A stretch of 64,000 bases of DNA from a virus (lineage: Duplodnaviria; Heunggongvirae; Uroviricota; Caudoviricetes), in the IMG/VR virus record IMGVR_UViG_3300049044_000033, positions 286,796 through 350,795 of that record; one strand, given 5' to 3'. The notes under the pieces are model-generated. The model did no database searches. It saw only the letters and a program-made list of their open reading frames with translations, and was not told the origin of the DNA. This document shows, piece after piece, positions 33,884 to 46,636 of this stretch; position 1 is the first letter of the stretch; each line of letters begins with the position of its first letter. The translations under genes and the position numbers were made by a program.

Positions 33884-33890
33884 GATCCTC

Positions 33891-33986
33891 CAGGATAGAG
33901 GCACACTTGTAACTAAGACGCTAATCCAGAGGTACCCGGCAGTCCGGTCAAGTATCTGGTGTAACGTTTTTGTGTGCCTCTATCTG
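33891..33986. repeat. long rod-like inverted repeat
   Basis: GATAGAGGCACAC(33894-906)/GTGTGCCTCTATC(33972-84) enclosing CCAGA/TCTGG and CCGG/CCGG stems. Confidence 0.7.
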
Positions 33987-34163
33987 CTCAATATGCCACT
34001 TCGTCGAATGCTCCGCTGAGCAAAAATCAAGCCGCACTTCTGTGAACTTATTGATCTTTGGATCTGCCCAATAGAGGCCATTCCCGCTCTCACTCTTGAG
34101 ATAGTTGGAATTTTCCAAAGCCATCCCACAAACAACACACCTAATTCCCGTGAGGTTAAACAC
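33948..34163 (-). CDS. small putative zinc-binding protein (TRASH/MYM-like)
   Basis: CVVC...FCSAEH; weak RBS. Confidence 0.4.
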   Translation of the reverse strand: MFNLTGIRCVVCGMALENSNYLKSESGNGLYWADPKINKFTEVRLDFCSAEHSTKWHIEQIEAHKNVTPDT

Positions 34164-34230
34164 CTAAATACCTTTATTGACTAAATCTCTTCTACCCCTT
34201 TACAGGTTAGCAGGAGAAAGGTCAAGGGTT

Positions 34231-35323: not shown

Positions 35324-37144
35324 GTGATGAGTCAGTATAAGTTCGCTGTCGTTCAATTCAATCCCATCGTAGGTGACCTTGAAGGCAATTTCCAAGGTCA
35401 TATTCAACACATCGAAGAAGCAGTAGCAGCCGGGGCAGACATGGTTGTCTTCCCTGAGATGTCTTTGACCGGCTACCCCTTGGAAGATCTTGTTCTCCGG
35501 CATTCGTTTATCGAAGCTGTTGAGGAACAGACTCAGAGGCTCATTGATGAAATTAAAACCCGGTGGCCAAACATCGGCGTAGTCTTCGGGGCACCTCGTT
35601 TCCGTGCTGGGCGTCAAACCATCTACAATAGTGCTTTCTTAGTTCACGGTGCTGCCGAAGGCGAATGGACTCGACTCCAAGTCGTCGACAAGCATGAACT
35701 TCCCAACTACGGGGTGTTTGACGAGAAGCGTGTATTTGCCCAAGGCGGCGAACCCTATCCCGTTACATTCAAGGGTCATCAAATCGGCCTTCTGATCTGC
35801 GAAGATACGTGGTTCCCCACTGTATCGCGCACCCTTCACGAAAACGGAGCAGTAATGCTGCTCAGCATCAACGGCTCGCCCTATGAAATGGGCAAGAACG
35901 TAGTGCGTCGGAAGGTCGTCGCAAATCGTATCAAGGAAACTGGCCTGCCGCTGATGTATGTCAATATGGTCGGCGGACAGGATGAACTCGTGTTTGATGG
36001 TGGTTCGTTCTACTGGGATGGGCAGACTTTGCAAGAAGCACCTGCATTCAAGGCCGGCATCTTTTACATGGATGTCACGCTCGATAAGGCAACCAGCTAC
36101 GTCAACAGGGACGGGCGTGTCGTTGGTCGAGTTCGGGACGATGGAACTTTTTCGGGATGGAACGGCGACACTGACGCTATTACTCTCGAGGGCTATCCGG
36201 AAGTAGAACCTTCGGGAATCAAGGAAGTCTACCAGGCTATTCATATGGGCCTCAAAGACTACATGACGAAGCAGAAGAACGCCCGTAGTGTTCCTGTATT
36301 CGGCCGGGCAGTCCTGGGTTATTCGGGCGGTGTGGATTCGGGTATCGTGGCCGCAGTAGCATGTGATGCGCTTGGCCCGGAAAATGTCCACCTCGTTCGT
36401 TTGCCTTCGAAGTATTCGTCGGAAGGTTCGCTTACTGACGCAGAAGATGGTGCCATGAGGCTTGGAGCGCCAATGCGGACTATTCACATTGAACCGATAG
36501 TCGATGCGCTTCGTCAGGCTTATTGGGGAGCCCAGGGTGGATGTAATTTCTACACCTATCGCAATAGCGAGCTAACTGGTGTCGCGGATGAAAACATTCA
36601 GGCACGTGCTCGTGGCAATATCCTGATGGCGATCTCGAACCAGGAAGGCCATATGTTGCTGACCACTGGCAACAAGTCGGAAGTCAGCGTTGGGTATTCG
36701 ACCCTCTATGGCGACATGAGCGGCGGCTACAATCCCATCAAGGACGCATATAAGACCACTGTGTGGGATCTGTGTCGTTGGAGGAATGCTCTCACGCAGG
36801 AAGAACTCAATGAACTGGGCTTCCTTGGTCGTGCTACCGAAGTTGTGCCCGAAGCAATCATCAGCAAGCCACCGAGCGCAGAGCTTCGTCCGGATCAAAA
36901 GGACGAGGATAGCCTCCCTCCCTACCCAGTTCTCGATGCTTTGCTCAAGGGTATGATTGAGCTGGAGAAGAGTGTTGAAGACCTTGTCAACGAAGGCTTC
37001 GATCGTGAGCAGGTCACCAGAGTTAGGAATCTGGTTGACAATGCAGAATATAAGCGTAGACAGGCAGCACCGGGTGTCAAGCTTACGAGCAAGATTCACG
37101 GGCGTGATCGGCGCTACCCGATTGTGAATGCTTGGAGGGCTTAA
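35324..37144 (+). CDS. nadE: glutamine-dependent NAD+ synthetase
   Basis: Nitrilase triad FPEM / DKHELPNY / ICEDTW; synthetase SGGVDS, NIQARARG, TGNKSE, YSTLYGD, PSAELRPDQKD. Confidence 0.96.
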   Translation: MMSQYKFAVVQFNPIVGDLEGNFQGHIQHIEEAVAAGADMVVFPEMSLTGYPLEDLVLRHSFIEAVEEQTQRLIDEIKTRWPNIGVVFGAPRFRAGRQTIYNSAFLVHGAAEGEWTRLQVVDKHELPNYGVFDEKRVFAQGGEPYPVTFKGHQIGLLICEDTWFPTVSRTLHENGAVMLLSINGSPYEMGKNVVRRKVVANRIKETGLPLMYVNMVGGQDELVFDGGSFYWDGQTLQEAPAFKAGIFYMDVTLDKATSYVNRDGRVVGRVRDDGTFSGWNGDTDAITLEGYPEVEPSGIKEVYQAIHMGLKDYMTKQKNARSVPVFGRAVLGYSGGVDSGIVAAVACDALGPENVHLVRLPSKYSSEGSLTDAEDGAMRLGAPMRTIHIEPIVDALRQAYWGAQGGCNFYTYRNSELTGVADENIQARARGNILMAISNQEGHMLLTTGNKSEVSVGYSTLYGDMSGGYNPIKDAYKTTVWDLCRWRNALTQEELNELGFLGRATEVVPEAIISKPPSAELRPDQKDEDSLPPYPVLDALLKGMIELEKSVEDLVNEGFDREQVTRVRNLVDNAEYKRRQAAPGVKLTSKIHGRDRRYPIVNAWRA

Positions 37145-37147
37145 ACG

Positions 37148-38467
37148 ATGGTAGATCTTGCACTTAGGGCGCACAACAAGAATTGGCACCTTGATCCCAT
37201 CGTTCGGTCGCTTCTTGATACTGACTTCTACAAGTTGATGATGGGACAGTTCATCTTTGAACGCTATCCCCTACATACCGTGACGTTCGGCTTGAAGAAT
37301 CGTACCAAGAGCATCAAGCTTTACAAAGATGGAGTTATCGAACTACAGGAACTTTTCCGCCAGCTAGATCACGTGAAAAACCTCAAGTTCACAAATCAGG
37401 AACTCATCTGGCTTCAGGGTAATACCTTCTACGGCCAGGAACGAATCTTCAAGCCTGCTTACATTGATTTTCTTCGCCGACTCAAGTTGCCTGATTACGA
37501 AGTCGATAGCGACGTTGAGGGTAATCTGATTCTCACTTTTACTGGATCGTGGGCGCATGTTACCTTTTGGGAGATTTACGCTCTCTCGATCATTAGCGAG
37601 ATGAAGACGCGTTGGGCTCTTAGCTCGCTCAACAAGTTTGAACTTGATGTGACCTATGCTTGCGCAAAATCCAAACTGTGGGGCAACCTAAAGAAGATCA
37701 AGAATGCCGGCGTTCGAGGTCTTTCGGATATGGGCACCCGTCGACGTCATAGTTTCCTCTGGCAGGAATGGGCCGTTAATGCAACGGCTGATGTGTTGGG
37801 CGAAGGCTTCATCGGCACGAGTAACGCCTACTTGGCTATGAAGTATGGCTATGAGGCAATCGGCACAAACGCACATGAACTGCCTATGACTCTAGCAGCT
37901 ATCAAGGCCGGTCAAGGTGCCTCTGATACTGCTATCAAGGAAACCCAATACGACGTTCTGAAGGCTTGGCAGAATCAATACTCGGGCAATGTGCTCGTGG
38001 CTCTGCCCGATACCTTCGGTACTACTCAGTTCCTCAATGGCGCACCGCAGTGGATATCTAACTGGAGGGGTTTCCGTCCCGATAGTAAGGCACCTGACGC
38101 CGCAACTGAAGAGCTGATCGCGTGGTGGAAGCGTATGGGAGTTGATCCTGCGAAGAAGCTGGTTCTCTACAGTGATGGCTTAGATGCTGACGAAATCGTG
38201 CGCATCTGGAATAAGTGGAACGGCATTGTGCAGGTCGGTTTCGGTTGGGGAACTAACTTGACCAACGACTTCAAGGGCTGTCACCCGCGCGATGAGCACA
38301 CCTTGGACCCGCTGTCGCTGGTATGTAAGGTCACGACCGCTGACGGTCACGCGGCTGTTAAGCTCTCCGACAACTATACCAAGGCAACTGGTCCAGAGGA
38401 TGAAGTTGCTCGCTATCGAGATATCTTCGGAAGCGAAGGTATGAAGGACGCACCGGTATTTGTATGA
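37148..38467 (+). CDS. pncB: nicotinate phosphoribosyltransferase
   Basis: LLDTDFYKL, DMGTRRRHS, GTNAHE phospho-His motif, DTFG, RPDS, FGWGTNLT, KLSDN. Confidence 0.93.
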   Translation: MVDLALRAHNKNWHLDPIVRSLLDTDFYKLMMGQFIFERYPLHTVTFGLKNRTKSIKLYKDGVIELQELFRQLDHVKNLKFTNQELIWLQGNTFYGQERIFKPAYIDFLRRLKLPDYEVDSDVEGNLILTFTGSWAHVTFWEIYALSIISEMKTRWALSSLNKFELDVTYACAKSKLWGNLKKIKNAGVRGLSDMGTRRRHSFLWQEWAVNATADVLGEGFIGTSNAYLAMKYGYEAIGTNAHELPMTLAAIKAGQGASDTAIKETQYDVLKAWQNQYSGNVLVALPDTFGTTQFLNGAPQWISNWRGFRPDSKAPDAATEELIAWWKRMGVDPAKKLVLYSDGLDADEIVRIWNKWNGIVQVGFGWGTNLTNDFKGCHPRDEHTLDPLSLVCKVTTADGHAAVKLSDNYTKATGPEDEVARYRDIFGSEGMKDAPVFV

Positions 38468-38685
38468 AGGGTAAGCATCTTGTCTACAAGCCAGGGCCTG
38501 ACGGTCAGCCAGAGTCCTGGTATTGTGGTCTCTCTTGCTACATTCGTGGTAATATAGGTCCATTCACTAATGTGAAGGAAGATGCTACTTGGTTAACGCA
38601 GAAGCAAGCCAAGGTTCTCATCGATAGTATGCGGCATCGAAAATATGATGTCTATGCGGAACCCTCATTTACGGTTGTCTACTAA
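38464..38685 (+). CDS. hypothetical protein
   Basis: ATGA overlap with pncB stop. Confidence 0.55.
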   Translation: MKGKHLVYKPGPDGQPESWYCGLSCYIRGNIGPFTNVKEDATWLTQKQAKVLIDSMRHRKYDVYAEPSFTVVY

Positions 38686-39017
38686 TGCCTAAGCCATTAT
38701 TCAAATGCACCACCCCCAACTGTAATGCGAGGAACTCTCGCAACCTACTAAAGGGCAGCAATGGGATTTGTCCACATTGTAAAACACCTATGGCCAATAA
38801 TTCTTGGCTAGGAGGAACTCCTACATTTGGACAGATCCTTTCTATACCCAAAAGTGAAGAGGTCGAAATCAAGAGGCTGGCCGAAGCTCTAGGTATGTAT
38901 CCTGAAAACATGATCAGCCTCATAATATCATCCAAGCTTCAAGAATGGCAGAAAGCCGAAAATATTGATAACAAAGCTAGCACGGATTTAATGCTTGCTA
39001 AACTTTCAAGGAGTTAA
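38685..39017 (+). CDS. hypothetical zinc-ribbon protein
   Basis: CTTPNC...CPHC; TAATG overlap. Confidence 0.6.
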   Translation: MPKPLFKCTTPNCNARNSRNLLKGSNGICPHCKTPMANNSWLGGTPTFGQILSIPKSEEVEIKRLAEALGMYPENMISLIISSKLQEWQKAENIDNKASTDLMLAKLSRS

Positions 39018-39019
39018 GC

Positions 39020-39196
39020 ATGTATAAGGTCGAGGGCGGAATTTTCACCAATACGAGCTTCTCGGTGCTTGAAAAGGGCACCCAGGAGTGTTATGGACCG
39101 TTTACCACATACGAGGAAGCATTCTCGAAGTGGCACGGCGCAACATGGGCTAAGGTAGATATTTGCTGCCATAGACTCGAAATTAAGGAGGTCTAA
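39020..39196 (+). CDS. DUF4170-like small protein (58 aa, below ORF-track cutoff)
   Basis: Manual translation MYKVEGGIFTNTSFSVLEKGTQECYGPFTTYEEAFSKWHGATWAKVDICCHRLEIKEV; SD AGGAG. Confidence 0.6.
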   Translation: MYKVEGGIFTNTSFSVLEKGTQECYGPFTTYEEAFSKWHGATWAKVDICCHRLEIKEV

Positions 39197-39880
39197 ATGG
39201 CTTACATCTATCCTTTCCGTATGGCAAGCGGCACTGCTACCATGCTTCCCATCGACGCTAAGAAGAACCGGGTTCTTCTCGGTGTTCGTTCAAAGACTGC
39301 TTGGGTCTATCCCAGCAAGCTCAGCCTGGCCGGTGGCTTCATGGAAGCACGTTTCGTAGAAGACAAGGAAAACAACCTGCTTCGCGAAGTGGTCAATTAC
39401 GTCCGCGGTATGCTAAAGATGAAGCTGATCGCTGACGAATTCCACGAAGGCGAGAACCTAGAGGAATGCGCAGCTCGCGAGCTCAACGAAGAGATGAGCC
39501 TCGATGTTGCTCTCGAGCAACTCAAAATGTTTTCAGTTCGTTCCAACAGCCGGACTGATACTCGGGCTCACGTGATCAACGCTTGCTACTATTTCGAGAT
39601 GACCGACGAGCAGATTGAAGCCGCTACTGCGGGTGACGATCTCGAGTGTCTCGAATGGCATGATATTGCGGATTTTGATCAGGGTCTTTCTTTTGAGGAA
39701 ATGAATGCCAAGTATGATATGGCGTTCAATCACTTCGAAATCATGATCCAGGGCTTGGAAGCTTGGAAGAAGGAACGTCGCTTCCAAGAACTCGAAGAAG
39801 AGGTCAAGAATCTTCGACGTAGAGTTCGTGATCTCTCTATCGATAACGAAGACCTGCAAGGTTTTGGAAGGGTTTGCTGA
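39197..39880 (+). CDS. Nudix hydrolase (ADP-ribose pyrophosphatase-like)
   Basis: SLAGGFME...GENLEECAARELNEE, RTDTRAHVI, AGDD, MAFNH. Confidence 0.85.
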   Translation: MAYIYPFRMASGTATMLPIDAKKNRVLLGVRSKTAWVYPSKLSLAGGFMEARFVEDKENNLLREVVNYVRGMLKMKLIADEFHEGENLEECAARELNEEMSLDVALEQLKMFSVRSNSRTDTRAHVINACYYFEMTDEQIEAATAGDDLECLEWHDIADFDQGLSFEEMNAKYDMAFNHFEIMIQGLEAWKKERRFQELEEEVKNLRRRVRDLSIDNEDLQGFGRVC

Positions 39881-40485
39881 TGGGTAAACGAACCGCTCTA
39901 GCAATTATGCGTACCCAGCCCATTCATCTTGGGCATACAGGTATCGCAAATATCATGATCAACAACTACGATGAAGTTATCATCGGTAGTGGATCTGCCG
40001 ACAAGCCGATTAGCATCGCAAATCCTTTCCCTATTGAGGTTCGACTTCAGATGTGGAAAAGGATTCATGGCGACCGCATCAAGCTTGTTCCACTCTCTGA
40101 CTTGGGTGCTACTCAGGATACCAATGAGTGGTGTGATTATGTGTTGAAGAAGATCAAAGGTCTAGGTCTTCCCGACCCAACTGATTACTTCACTGGATCG
40201 CCTGCTGATGCAGTATGGTATCGCGGTCGCTTCTTCAACAAGGAATGTAACTCGCCTGCCGATGATGATACGGAAGAGTTCATCGAACGCTATATGCCTA
40301 ATGGTGTATTCCGTCAGCTTCATCTTGTTGATCGTGATAAGAACTATATTCCCAGTGCCACGGAATTGCGCCAGTTTATGGTTACGCGAGATGATGGTTG
40401 GAAACGATGGGTTCCTGCTATTATACATGATCTAGTCGAGGAACATTTCCCCGAAGAGTTTAAGGTCAAGCACGGAGATCACTAA
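39880..40485 (+). CDS. NMN/NaMN adenylyltransferase (NadM/NadR-type)
   Basis: MRTQPIHLGH (HxGH), IGSGSA, NPFPIEVR, PSATELR. Confidence 0.85.
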   Translation: MGKRTALAIMRTQPIHLGHTGIANIMINNYDEVIIGSGSADKPISIANPFPIEVRLQMWKRIHGDRIKLVPLSDLGATQDTNEWCDYVLKKIKGLGLPDPTDYFTGSPADAVWYRGRFFNKECNSPADDDTEEFIERYMPNGVFRQLHLVDRDKNYIPSATELRQFMVTRDDGWKRWVPAIIHDLVEEHFPEEFKVKHGDH

Positions 40486-40748
40486 TGGGCGATATGGGCG
40501 AGCTGTTTAACGATCTCAAGCAGATTCGTAAGGAACAGCGATCCGCTCGATCTACCCAAGCGGGTTCTATGGTTCATGATGTGGAGAAGATGGTCGACAA
40601 ACTGACCGTTGACCCATCGGGGACCTGGAACCTTGTGAAGGGCCAAAACAAAATACAGTTCTATCCCACTAAGGGAACATGGCAGCATCGAGGAAGGATG
40701 TTGCGTGGAGGGATTCATTCCTTTATGAACTGGCTAGAGAAACTGTAA
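40485..40748 (+). CDS. hypothetical protein
   Basis: MGDMGELFNDLK...IQFYPTKGTW. Confidence 0.65.
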   Translation: MGDMGELFNDLKQIRKEQRSARSTQAGSMVHDVEKMVDKLTVDPSGTWNLVKGQNKIQFYPTKGTWQHRGRMLRGGIHSFMNWLEKL

Positions 40749-40757
40749 GGGAAGACA

Positions 40758-41201
40758 ATGACCGCTATTATCCAGACTGTTGAATCAGTTGAAGCTTACG
40801 GCGAGAACCTCTCCATTGTGACCACGAGCGAAGGTCATAAGGTCATCGCAAACAAAAAGGAAGACGGTAGCTTCCGTTGGGAAGCGGGTGAACTCGTTGC
40901 CTACGTGAGCGAGGGTTCGATCATTCCTGATGACGTTCTCAAGGAACGTGGTTACTGGGACGAGGAAAAGGATCGTGGTCTGCTTGATGGCGGGAAGCGC
41001 AATCGCGTCAAAATGAAGAAGCTTGCAGGTTTCGAGTCTCGCGGTCTGCTGTTTAAGGTCGAAGATAAGACCTTTATGGGTCGGACATTCAAGGCGGTCC
41101 TACGGTCTAATCCTCCTGGTGAGGATCTAAGCGTCTGGAGAGGTGTAGAAATCGGCCATGATGTTTCCGAGTTCTTTGGAATTACAGAGTTCCAGGGGTG
41201 A
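40758..41201 (+). CDS. stand-alone OB-fold like the N-terminus of DRB0094-type RNA ligases
   Basis: GELVAYVSEGSIIP...RVKMKKLAGFESRGLL...DVSEFFGI. Confidence 0.6.
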   Translation: MTAIIQTVESVEAYGENLSIVTTSEGHKVIANKKEDGSFRWEAGELVAYVSEGSIIPDDVLKERGYWDEEKDRGLLDGGKRNRVKMKKLAGFESRGLLFKVEDKTFMGRTFKAVLRSNPPGEDLSVWRGVEIGHDVSEFFGITEFQG

Positions 41202-41410
41202 CAGAATACCGCCCTTCTGACGAAGCTATTCTCGCAGCTTCTAAGGTCATCGAAAACTCATTGCGATTCCACGGACACTTCAAAGGTCTCCCAACCTACG
41301 AAGAGATGCTAGTAAGCGATCCTATCGGGGCTAGCGAATGGGGCGGTGTCATTGAGCGGGCACTGATGGCTGCTCACGAGGCCGAACTTGACAAGACGTC
41401 CAGTTCGTAG
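41198..41410 (+). CDS. hypothetical protein
   Basis: GTGA overlap. Confidence 0.55.
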   Translation: MTEYRPSDEAILAASKVIENSLRFHGHFKGLPTYEEMLVSDPIGASEWGGVIERALMAAHEAELDKTSSS

Positions 41411-41495
41411 TATAATGGTTAGGTAAATAGAGATGGCCTGCTAATCAATTGGTTGAGCAACCATCCCAGAACCTCAATGAAAGTTGGAGGATAAA
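41388..41495 (+). promoter_or_regulatory. consensus sigma70 promoter, late motif and structured leader of pncA
   Basis: TTGACA-N17-TATAAT (41388-41416); TAAATA at about 41424; GAAA-loop hairpin pairing with SD GGAGG. Confidence 0.75.
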
Positions 41496-42098
41496 ATGAA
41501 GAAGTTCCTTGTCGTAATCGACACACAATATGATTTCGTGATGCCCGATGGCGCCCTCTACGTAGGGACTGCTGAAGAGATCATTGTTCCCGGCATCAAG
41601 TTCCTCGCAAATCTGAACCCTGATGAATACACGGGTGCTCTATTCACCTACGATACTCATACCCCGAAGGTTTATGAAGGTTCGTCGGAAAGCGAGATGT
41701 TTCCCATCCATTGCGTGAAGAAGACTCCCGGATGGGCTAACGTATTCAACGACTGTTTGGTCCACAAGAATATCCCAGTATTCCGCCTTGAAAAAGGTGT
41801 ATTCAATATGTGGGAAGAAGACGGCCTCAAGCTAGAACGCTTCGATCGTTCGACTTCGATTGTGCGCCCAGTTATTGATCTTTTCATCCGCGATGAATTC
41901 TTCGACCACATGAATCCCAATGAAGTTACCATCGAGGTATTCGGTGTTGCTTCCGACTTCTGCGTCAAGTGGGCTGTTGATGGTTTTGTAAAGCGTGGTT
42001 TCAAGGTCAACGTTGTGGCCGAATTGTGCCGTGGCATTACATTGTCGGCACCTCATGTTTTTAACGAGACTGGTTACGAGAACGTCACATTGATCTAA
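41496..42098 (+). CDS. pncA: nicotinamidase (isochorismatase family)
   Basis: VIDTQYDF (Asp), DTH and HC metal ligands, LEKG (Lys), GVASDFCV (Cys). Confidence 0.9.
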   Translation: MKKFLVVIDTQYDFVMPDGALYVGTAEEIIVPGIKFLANLNPDEYTGALFTYDTHTPKVYEGSSESEMFPIHCVKKTPGWANVFNDCLVHKNIPVFRLEKGVFNMWEEDGLKLERFDRSTSIVRPVIDLFIRDEFFDHMNPNEVTIEVFGVASDFCVKWAVDGFVKRGFKVNVVAELCRGITLSAPHVFNETGYENVTLI

Positions 42099-42136
42099 TC
42101 AGGTTGACACTTACTCTATTCATGTTACAACAAAGC

Positions 42137-42793
42137 ATGAATACGCCACCCAAATATCCATCGAGTCCTCATTGGGTTGATTCTCCCGAAGTTCATCGGG
42201 ACGATTCAACCCATCAAAATCCCGAGTTCTTCTTGGGTCGTGAGGTAGTGATAACTGAGAAGCTTGACGGCGGTAACACCTGCCTTAACGCAGGTGAAGT
42301 ATATGCCAGATCAACAGGTCAACCTGCTACTCAGAGTTGGTTCGCGATGGTTAAAAAGCATCATGCTTGGCGGACCATTGACATTGATCCTCGCATCTCA
42401 GTTTATGGAGAAGACCTTTACGGCATTCATTCCATTACCTATGATGCCTTGAAAGAAGATGAGACTTATCGGGTCTTCAATATCCGAGAAGATGACGAGT
42501 GGCTTTCCTTGGATGAAAAGATTGCGTTCTGTGAAGAGCATCAGTTCATCATGGTTCCCATTCTCTTCCGAGGGGTCTTCAACAGCATCAAGGAAATCAC
42601 AAAGTGGTTTGATAGCCACGTTAAAGAGCCGAGCGCCCTTGGTCCAGAGCGTGAGGGTTTTGTGATGCAGATTACCGATCGTTTTCATAATGACAACTTT
42701 GCGACCTCGGTAGCAAAGTATGTCCGAAAGGGCCATGTTCAAACTGATGAGCATTGGACTCGCAACTGGAAGCCTGCCGCTCTATTGAAGTAG
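42137..42793 (+). CDS. RNA ligase, Rnl2-type nucleotidyltransferase domain only
   Basis: Motif I TEKLDG, III YGE, IIIa VFNI, IV EGFV, V AKYV. Confidence 0.8.
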   Translation: MNTPPKYPSSPHWVDSPEVHRDDSTHQNPEFFLGREVVITEKLDGGNTCLNAGEVYARSTGQPATQSWFAMVKKHHAWRTIDIDPRISVYGEDLYGIHSITYDALKEDETYRVFNIREDDEWLSLDEKIAFCEEHQFIMVPILFRGVFNSIKEITKWFDSHVKEPSALGPEREGFVMQITDRFHNDNFATSVAKYVRKGHVQTDEHWTRNWKPAALLK

Positions 42794-45852: not shown

Positions 45853-45985
45853 GTATCCAATAATACAAGACAAAAAGGTCGGGATGAAAATTCCGACCTT
45901 TTCTTGTGAAAAGATATTGAATAAACAATCTATCCTCCATATATAACGTTCTATCCAATATGGACATTTATTGAAAGGAAAGTTC

Positions 45986-46492
45986 ATGAAGGCATTTCTT
46001 ATCGCTGCTGCGGCAGCTCTGGTCGCAGTTGCGGCTCCTGCTTCGGCTCAGGATTTCACCGGTGCTCGTATCGGTGTGACCGGCGGTTACGATAACATCC
46101 AGGACCGTGAAGGCGTTACCTACGGCGTCGTAGTTGGCGTTGATGCGCCTGTTGCCAAGGGCGTGACCCTGGGCGTGGAAGCTACCCTGGAAGATTCGAC
46201 TGCTGACCAGTCGGTTCTGGAAGCTTCGCGCGAAATCGGCGTTGCTGCTCGTCTCGGCGTGAAGGTTCTGCCCAAGGCACAGATCTTCGGCAAGGTTGGT
46301 TATACCAACGCTCGCGTTGAACTGCAGGGCACCAATGCTGGCGTTTCGCTGGAAGGTCTGCGTTATGGCGGCGGCGTTGAATACGCTGTAACCGAGAAGG
46401 TTTACACCACTGTTGAATACCGTCGTTCGGAATACGAAGACGGCGTTGGCGGTCGTGATGGCGTCCTAGTTGGCGTCGGCTTCCGCTTCTAA
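45986..46492 (+). CDS. outer-membrane beta-barrel protein (Omp25/RopB/Ail-like) with signal peptide
   Basis: MKAFLIAAAAALVAVAAPASA-Q signal; alternating beta-strands; C-terminal GVGFRF BAM signal; terminator 46509-46541. Confidence 0.85.
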   Translation: MKAFLIAAAAALVAVAAPASAQDFTGARIGVTGGYDNIQDREGVTYGVVVGVDAPVAKGVTLGVEATLEDSTADQSVLEASREIGVAARLGVKVLPKAQIFGKVGYTNARVELQGTNAGVSLEGLRYGGGVEYAVTEKVYTTVEYRRSEYEDGVGGRDGVLVGVGFRF

Positions 46493-46636
46493 TTCGTTAG
46501 AAGTAAGCAAAAAAGGTAGAGGAGAAATCCTCTACCTTTTTTGTTGACTTTTGTGTCTTGACAAACGATCGACTTTGTTGTTTATAAGAGCTTCCCACTC
46601 GTGGGACTGAACTCTACAACCGAGGAGAAATACAAG

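Follow-up and report, generated by a model that had tools for sequence, protein, structure and literature searches.

The window analysed here is a 64-kb stretch of jumbo phage DNA (G000:C1:286796-350795) from a 462,455-bp IMG/VR record that has direct terminal repeats and is rated complete, and its interval 35324-42098 is probably a phage-encoded deamidating salvage module for nicotinamide adenine dinucleotide (NAD+), upholding the NAD+ pool of the infected cell whatever the drain on that pool. An initial annotation had assigned five enzymes to this interval, namely a nicotinamidase (PncA), a nicotinate phosphoribosyltransferase (PncB, a NaPRTase), an adenylyltransferase of the NadM type, a glutamine-dependent NAD+ synthetase (NadE) and a Nudix hydrolase, and family scores, motifs and PDB matches place all five there on the + strand (Table 1). 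The four-step route first proposed, from nicotinamide via nicotinate, nicotinate mononucleotide (NaMN) and nicotinate adenine dinucleotide (NaAD) to NAD+, stands as a well-supported prediction on the basis of family scores, motifs and conserved synteny. In this route PncA would hydrolyse nicotinamide to nicotinate, PncB would combine nicotinate with host phosphoribosyl pyrophosphate (PRPP) in an ATP-coupled reaction to give NaMN, the NadM-like enzyme would adenylylate NaMN to NaAD, and NadE would turn NaAD into NAD+, drawing the amide from glutamine. The NadM-like enzyme could also convert nicotinamide mononucleotide (NMN), a by-product of the NAD-dependent ligase of the phage, directly to NAD+, while the Nudix hydrolase, coupled translationally to NadM, would most likely cleave ADP-ribose (or NAD(H)) to AMP and ribose-5-phosphate.

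NadE joins a nitrilase-type glutaminase domain to a synthetase domain, with the E45/K123/C159 triad and the P-loop SGGVDS334 in place, and it passes the NAD+ synthase equivalog model NF010588 (646.6 bits against a cut-off of 479) and matches PDB 3N05 with 432.6 bits. PncB scored 421.4 bits against NF003704 (cut-off 379) and 481.6 bits against the Agrobacterium tumefaciens NaPRTase 1YBE over residues 2-438, whereas it reached only 80 bits against the phage Nampt family phrog_448. Because it passes NF003704 and matches 1YBE over its full length, PncB is, by sequence, a nicotinate enzyme of host-like alphaproteobacterial ancestry and not a Nampt, and these scores side with the earlier reading of a nicotinate rather than a nicotinamide transferase. 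Furthermore, PncB is the one PF04095 gene in the complete genome and is NaPRTase-class; therefore, the phage has no Nampt. For the nicotinamidase, all nine sequence matches in the PDB were nicotinamidase/isochorismatase-family chains, most of them named nicotinamidase/pyrazinamidase (2H0R, E 3.3e-10), and an alignment showed the catalytic Asp, Lys and Cys together with the DxH...H metal ligands to be invariant across two nicotinamidase lineages, these ligands being the feature that separates nicotinamidases from other isochorismatase-like hydrolases. Its probable start is the ATG at 41496, with a GGAGG upstream.

The NadM-like enzyme passes PF01467 (26.2 bits against a cut-off of 21), its PDB relatives are only archaeal NMN adenylyltransferases (NMNATs) and Francisella NadM, and HLGH16 and SATELR159 (the HxGH and SxTxxR motifs) are invariant across its family. 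Its probable start, the ATG at 39880, overlaps the Nudix stop codon (TAATG). The Nudix protein passes PF00293 with 36.7 bits against 21.1 and keeps an intact, invariant REx2EE motif. The two genes match the respective halves of the fused NMNAT-Nudix family phrog_395, although weakly (E 1e-3 and 2e-4), and weak matches to the Nudix domains of NadM-Nudix fusions were found for five of the seven Nudix family members in an NCBIfam scan. Given this translational coupling to NadM and a pair that mirrors the fused NMNAT-Nudix, an ADP-ribose or NAD(H) pyrophosphatase appears to be the likeliest identity of the Nudix protein.

Table 1. Features of the NAD interval, its neighbours and related loci (positions are those of the window unless a contig or locus is named)
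Feature	Position	Strand	Basis or remark
NadE, two-domain glutamine-dependent NAD+ synthetase, 606 aa	35324..37144	+	NF010588; PF00795 + PF02540; PDB 3N05
PncB, nicotinate phosphoribosyltransferase, 439 aa	37148..38467	+	NF003704; PF17767 + PF04095; 1YBE
Small open reading frame (ORF), 73 aa	38464..38685	+	Overlaps PncB stop by 4 nt; homologue seen only in L007
Small ORF, 110 aa	38685..39017	+	N-terminal CxxC...CxxC, zinc-ribbon-like; possible ribbon-helix-helix C-terminus (weak RHH/CopG lead, Atlas)
DUF4170 protein, 58 aa	39020..39196	+	PF13773, 51.2 bits (cut-off 25)
Nudix hydrolase, 227 aa	39197..39880	+	PF00293; phrog_1198
NadM/archaeal-type nicotinamide/nicotinate mononucleotide adenylyltransferase, 201 aa from ATG	39880..40485	+	PF01467; ORF opens with TTG at 39874
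Small ORF, 87 aa	40485..40748	+	Conserved in clade
RNA-ligase N-terminal-domain-like protein (DraRnl-type), 147 aa	40758..41201	+	phrog_968; TIGR02306
Small ORF, 70 aa	41198..41410	+	No family match
Perfect sigma-70 consensus promoter-like site, TTGACA-17-TATAAT	41388..41416	+	80 nt upstream of pncA ATG
PncA-like nicotinamidase, 200 aa from ATG	41496..42098	+	PDB matches; triad and metal site; ORF opens with TTG at 41484
RNA ligase nucleotidyltransferase part, 229 aa, neighbour outside the NAD route	42104..42793	+	PF09414; phrog_24030
565-aa fusion protein (P0042), three parts	G000:C1 about 98765-100462 = L014:406-2103	-	
PF15891 genes of relatives (examples)	L009:12052-12525; L007:12877-13335; L008:12428-12901; Phosso gene 366		PF15891

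The arrangement is conserved beyond this phage. When IMG/VR was scanned with a profile of the NadM-like family, 19 viral loci emerged with 36-85% identity in the NadM-like protein, and the same-strand order NadE-PncB-Nudix-NadM-PncA is kept across them, with NadE found nearby in 17, PncB and Nudix in 16 each and PncA in 15; several of the missing genes are explained by contig ends. Because the gene order recurs in 19 viral loci, chance co-occurrence of five enzymes is not an issue. At the NadE position a two-domain enzyme is found in the window and in L007/L023, L032 and L036, while a one-domain enzyme (PF02540 only) occupies it in 14 of the 19 loci and in Sinorhizobium phage Phosso. Similarly, a second, canonical isochorismatase-family nicotinamidase sits at the PncA position in L008/L024 and L029. 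That NadE and PncA are swapped for other versions at fixed positions with function kept suggests that selection may act on the whole pathway and not on single genes, and this retention of function while the gene is exchanged is the strongest comparative evidence for selection at the pathway level. Compared with close relatives, PncB (69-82% identity) and NadM (76-85%) matched or exceeded the adjacent head-to-tail adaptor (63-78%).

Two cultured phages carry homologous genes. In Phosso (Sinorhizobium meliloti, PV764938) they stand in the same order as in the window, and the GenBank record labels them NAD+ synthetase, NaPRTase, MutT-like hydrolase and NMNAT. In Atu_ph07 (A. tumefaciens, MF403008) Nudix, NadM and PncA lie together, with PncB 3 kb off on the opposite strand and NadE 85 kb away. 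The nicotinamidase is labelled merely "hydrolase" in Phosso and no more than "hydrolase" or "hypothetical" across the two records, and its family is unnamed in PHROGs. Identity between the window and these two phages is 54-56% for PncB, 37-45% for the NadM-like protein and 46-53% for the PncA-like protein. With megablast the region had no match among 50,697 phage records, the DNA of the relatives having diverged too far. The window also encodes, around the NAD cluster, a large terminase, portal, tail sheath, helicase and lysozyme, and the phage is a jumbo phage akin to Phosso and Atu_ph07; the best explanation is that it is a jumbo myovirus with an alphaproteobacterial (Rhizobiaceae-like) host.

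The rest of the genome was searched by family for other ways of making NAD+. These genome-wide searches did not detect Prs/Adps (PF13793), a family matched in 14 of 14 control genomes, nor PnuC (PF04973), SIR2 (PF02146), Macro (PF01661) or CinA/PncC (PF02464), and the lack of Nampt, Prs/Adps, PnuC and PncC in the phage genome favours the deamidating salvage module. With these negative results and a sole PF04095 gene that is NaPRTase-class, membership in NARP1, NARP2 or NARP3 was rejected, and the initial annotation was right in calling the cluster neither NARP1 nor NARP2. A link to an NMN deamidase was likewise rejected, no CinA/PncC having been found in the genome. Four PF01467 proteins are encoded, none of which matches NadR models above noise. 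A hidden NadD was considered among the three other than the NadM-like enzyme, which are a CoaD next to a CoaE, an unclassified protein and a 565-aa fusion resembling an NMNAT joined to a phosphoribosyltransferase. The genome further encodes three Nudix genes besides that of the cluster and a complete NAD-dependent DNA ligase, LigA, with adenylation, OB, HhH and BRCT domains.

Several observations weigh against a deamidating salvage module and have to be set beside this evidence. The likely hosts among the Rhizobiaceae probably already possess the same pathway; therefore, the phage copy would add flux and not a new capability. The nicotinamidase scored 22.7 bits with the Pfam Isochorismatase model, under its 27-bit cut-off, and pncA lies behind its own promoter-like site between the two halves of an RNA ligase. 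The initial annotation had called all catalytic motifs intact; this holds for the triads, the P-loop, HLGH and REx2EE, but in the Nudix box an unusual insert of about 28 residues, also kept in relatives, separates GGFME46 from GE85. An NCBIfam scan of all members of the Nudix family returned subfamily matches that were weak and mixed, and the earlier suggestion that the enzyme could split ADP-ribose for host PRPP synthesis has such weak matches as its basis. The NadM step is the weak link of the proposed route. The NadM-like enzyme falls below the curated NMNAT cut-offs (53 bits with NF002243 and 50 bits with TIGR01527), and searching the PDB with profiles from the NadM-like and the Nudix alignment made the substrate assignment no sharper. 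An adenylyltransferase with HxGH motif, as first described, is indeed present and is of the NadM type, but its proposed production of NaAD from NaMN is a prediction from precedent: archaeal NadM accepts both NMN and NaMN, and Acinetobacter combines a bifunctional NadM with a NadE of two domains (PMC3376133). The Francisella NadM, by contrast, has as its partner a NadE that acts before it, amidating NaMN (PMC3376133). Either order of the two steps, adenylylation first or amidation first, ends in NAD+.

The organisation of the genes bears on how the module would be expressed. From NadE through the 70-aa ORF the spacing between genes is -7 to +9 nt; an 85-nt gap then follows, with a promoter-like site inside it, before pncA, and the second RNA ligase part begins 5 nt beyond. 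TTGACA-17-TATAAT has this one exact match in the 64-kb window, where 0.01 would be expected by chance, and a site with at most two mismatches lies upstream of the nicotinamidase position in five of six close relatives, including one with the different nicotinamidase gene. The T4-type late promoter motif TATAAATA was not found on the + strand between 30 and 47 kb. Since pncA sits after a gap with its own promoter-like site, the five enzyme genes are probably read from at least two transcripts and not from one.

The RNA ligase around pncA is an observation in its own right. The 147-aa protein covers positions 25-134 of the 398 in phrog_968 (E 4e-7) and positions 27-94 of TIGR02306, the N-terminal part only, and the 229-aa protein matches PF09414 with 74.9 bits and positions 135-332 of the 342 in phrog_24030. 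A ligase of the DraRnl/phrog_24030 type is thus apparently split into two genes, with the 70-aa ORF, the promoter-like site and pncA in between, and both halves flank the nicotinamidase position in close relatives too.

How well a role in counter-defence explains the module is the first question to be weighed. The phage might rebuild NAD+ from nicotinamide, and from ADP-ribose via the Nudix hydrolase, once these are freed by TIR, SIR2 or SEFIR NADases, and so be rescued from Thoeris, DSR and SIR2-HerA-type immunity, a dedicated function that we regard as possible though short of an even chance. NARP2 and NARP3, which likewise use ordinary salvage reactions, have been shown to overcome NADase defences, and the substrates of the route are products of NADases. 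The location of pncA behind the sole perfect sigma-70 consensus site in 64 kb would fit early expression by host RNA polymerase, the interleaved RNA-repair-type ligase represents another counter-conflict function, and the pathway has been retained for long with gene replacements at fixed positions. However, we found no published experiment on any Preiss-Handler phage cluster, nor any paper in which a deamidating route of a phage was tried against a defence. A need for PRPP, three ATP-consuming steps and glutamine would make the route slower and costlier than NARP1 or NARP2, taking nicotinamide away could lift the inhibition of the NADases by their product, and an NAD consumer of the phage's own explains the genes without any defence. 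The anti-defence reading is therefore plausible, and because the phage encodes an NAD-dependent DNA ligase, plain NAD supply for its own needs is an equal rival that appears no less well supported.

That rival, in its strict form, confines the module to housekeeping: it would serve only the phage's own NAD+ economy in a long jumbo-phage cycle (ligase, redox and recycling of ligase-derived NMN) with no role in immunity, which we think unlikely in so exclusive a form. The complete LigA speaks for it, NadM-type enzymes use NMN well (PMC3376133), and the absence of a detectable PncC means that an NMN-accepting adenylyltransferase would be needed. Other cofactor genes are present in the form of CoaE and CoaD, and Li et al. 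2024 interpreted such clusters as metabolic reprogramming (PMC11662467). The salvage genes of phage KVP40, however, were first given the same reading and later proved to be anti-defence, and ligase turnover alone makes no nicotinamide, which leaves the conserved nicotinamidase unexplained. The deamidating salvage module accommodates either drain. As to CoaE and CoaD, they are adjacent genes at G000:C1 about 406500-407608 (L013:899-2007, +) for dephospho-CoA kinase (TIGR00152, 78 bits, cut-off 65.6) and pantetheine-phosphate adenylyltransferase (TIGR01510, 128.7 bits, cut-off 103.3); by family scores, the phage thus has genes for the two final steps of coenzyme A (CoA) synthesis.

The Nudix hydrolase may have a role other than ADP-ribose recycling, as an NAD(H) pyrophosphatase, an NAD-cap decapping or nucleotide-sanitising enzyme or a destroyer of ADP-ribose-derived immune signals, and we give this a low but real probability. 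The leading NCBIfam matches are divided among models for NudI, dihydroneopterin-triphosphate diphosphatase, NAD+ diphosphatase and NadM-Nudix, all far below cut-off, three further Nudix genes exist in the genome, and the box insertion and a coiled-coil-like tail are atypical. Against this, the Nudix stop overlaps the NadM start in a pair that mirrors the fused phrog_395, and the Nudix gene stands next to NadM in 16 of the 19 loci.

A different order of steps or other partners is a still more doubtful prospect. NadE could act as an NMN synthetase on NaMN and be followed by NadM, as in Francisella, or the NadM-like enzyme could be NMN-specific, with host NadD or the NMNAT-phosphoribosyltransferase-like fusion of the phage performing the NaMN step. 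In Francisella the replacement of NadD by NadM accompanies an NMN-synthetase NadE (PMC3376133), a one-domain NadE stands at the NadE position in most relatives, and the fusion supplies a second adenylyltransferase domain of the NadD/NMNAT class. However, the NadE of the window has two domains and passes the NAD+ synthase equivalog model, Phosso and Atu_ph07 keep the cluster without the fusion protein, and specificity for NaMN or NMN is not readable from sequence.

The fusion protein itself has three parts. Its N-terminus carries a J-domain-like DLYEILGV motif, and its middle domain was modelled with a pLDDT of 91.5 as an NMNAT/NadD-class fold for which all of the top 50 Foldseek matches are NMN/NaMN adenylyltransferases. 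The C-terminal 283 residues (model pLDDT 95) adopt a divergent fold like that of type I phosphoribosyltransferases, with the PRPP loop VLVEDDTVTGDT. Foldseek gave no significant match for this domain, and the type I lead comes only from the exhaustive aligner VIA-align (Z 5-7.2 to OPRT, HGPRT and APRT) and from a sequence profile (APRT, E 0.002). The models suggest that the protein is possibly a one-polypeptide enzyme that builds a pyridine nucleotide. It is found in two close uncultured relatives and in neither Phosso nor Atu_ph07; because both keep the NAD cluster without it, the conserved cluster does not depend on the fusion. No match was found in the 50,697 phage records, while on contigs of jumbo-phage size the family forms over 80 sequence clusters, and Atlas clusters with 147 and 755 members, dominated by phages, also belong to it.

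A more ambitious proposal joins these elements, so that a Nudix-NadM-PncA core with PncB and NadE would form a fourth, deamidating NAD+ reconstitution pathway of Rhizobiaceae jumbo phages against NADase immunity, with the Nudix hydrolase returning the carbon of ADP-ribose to PRPP and, in a subclade, perhaps backed by the 565-aa fusion, an undescribed enzyme that could build a pyridine dinucleotide. We consider this composite unlikely. If protection against NAD-depleting defences were true, the deamidating route would join three proven phage NAD+ reconstitution pathways, and even a costly four-step route would be worth carrying.

Interleaved with the NAD genes the interval holds seven small ORFs, among them the 73-aa, 110-aa, DUF4170, 87-aa, 147-aa RNA-ligase-like and 70-aa ORFs. 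Family searches gave no match for the 73-aa ORF, and an Atlas search with the 87-aa ORF returned unnamed clusters only. The 110-aa ORF, whose position directly after PncB is kept in close relatives, may by its motifs encode a small regulator. The DUF4170 gene, from a family otherwise known from alphaproteobacteria, stands directly before the Nudix gene in the window and in several relatives. After the nicotinamidase, 12 of the 19 related loci carry a nucleoside 2-deoxyribosyltransferase-like gene (PF15891, 60-63 bits), which was absent from a family search of the source phage's whole genome; in the relatives it could belong to an NAD/ribose-phosphate module. In one relative a gene for ribosome recycling factor (PF01765, 169 bits; L012:12301-12804) is inserted at this point. 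Outside the cluster, a long-range inverted repeat, GGATAGAGGCACAC ... GTGTGCCTCTATC, lies in the 293 nt that separate the head-to-tail adaptor gene from the ORF after it (33884-34176), and an outer-membrane beta-barrel protein encoded by the phage (PF13505, 64 bits; 45971-46492, +) is followed by a hairpin with an 18-bp stem at 46506-46545 that is terminator-like when read on both strands.

Set against published systems, the cluster is not new as a kind. The initial annotation had presented it as a candidate third type beside NARP1 and NARP2, which is out of date since NARP3, consisting of PnuC and NadR, was published in 2026 (PMC13464706), and it had located the novelty in the anti-defence function, an idea that has also been overtaken: complete Preiss-Handler clusters of jumbo phages and their suggested counter-defence role were described in 2024 (PMC11662467). 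That bioinformatic study by Li et al. (Microbiome) described 174 "NAD-jumbo phages" whose salvage or Preiss-Handler gene sets were complete, pncB-nadD-nadE clusters among them, and proposed metabolic take-over or counter-defence. Iyer et al. 2021 had placed NAD+ synthesis of jumbo phages among counter-conflict systems, and Osterman et al. 2024 pointed to NAD salvage genes in phages that belong to neither NARP1 nor NARP2. The discovery is incremental, since clusters of this kind and the counter-defence idea have both been published.

NARP2 (Nampt and a bifunctional Nmnat-Nudix, Vibrio phage KVP40; Osterman et al. 2024) likewise starts from nicotinamide and PRPP, follows classical salvage and has an NMNAT beside a Nudix. 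By contrast, the window lacks Nampt and has a NaPRTase-class enzyme, so that deamidation by PncA and re-amidation by NadE are added, and its NMNAT and Nudix are encoded by two genes whose order is reversed. NARP1 (Adps and Namat) and NARP3 presumably reach the same outcome, a restored NAD+ pool, by different chemistry, whereas in the source genome no PRPS-like Adps, Namat, PnuC or NadR-type protein was found. The bacterial pyridine nucleotide cycle, or Preiss-Handler pathway (PncA, PncB, NadD and NadE), consists of the same four reactions as the proposed route, and PncB of the window is nearly host-like (1YBE); the Acinetobacter variant combines NadM with a two-domain NadE as the window does (PMC3376133). 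The genes of the window differ from the bacterial pathway in being viral and packed into a single array that also contains a Nudix gene and small phage-specific ORFs.

Among the closest published counterparts are the NAD-jumbo phages, in which, as in the window, all genes from nicotinate to NAD+ are clustered in a jumbo phage (Kuafu_71, pncB-nadD-nadE; PMC11662467). The window has a NadM-type enzyme and not NadD, a separate Nudix gene and a nicotinamidase in the conserved set, and hosts of its type are alphaproteobacteria whereas theirs are gut Bacteroidota. Its cultured relatives differ from it in turn, Phosso by a one-domain, ammonia-type NadE and Atu_ph07 by the distant NadE and the PncB on the other strand, with NadR and PnuC also listed in its published description. 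Taken together, the clade adds to the known kind a NadM-type adenylyltransferase with a separate Nudix, an unnamed nicotinamidase family, replacements of NadE and PncA at fixed positions and two cultured relatives. Its practical value lies in the latter: Phosso on S. meliloti and Atu_ph07 on A. tumefaciens C58 carry the same genes, so that deletion and complementation in them offer a direct test of the question left by the 2024 metagenomic survey.

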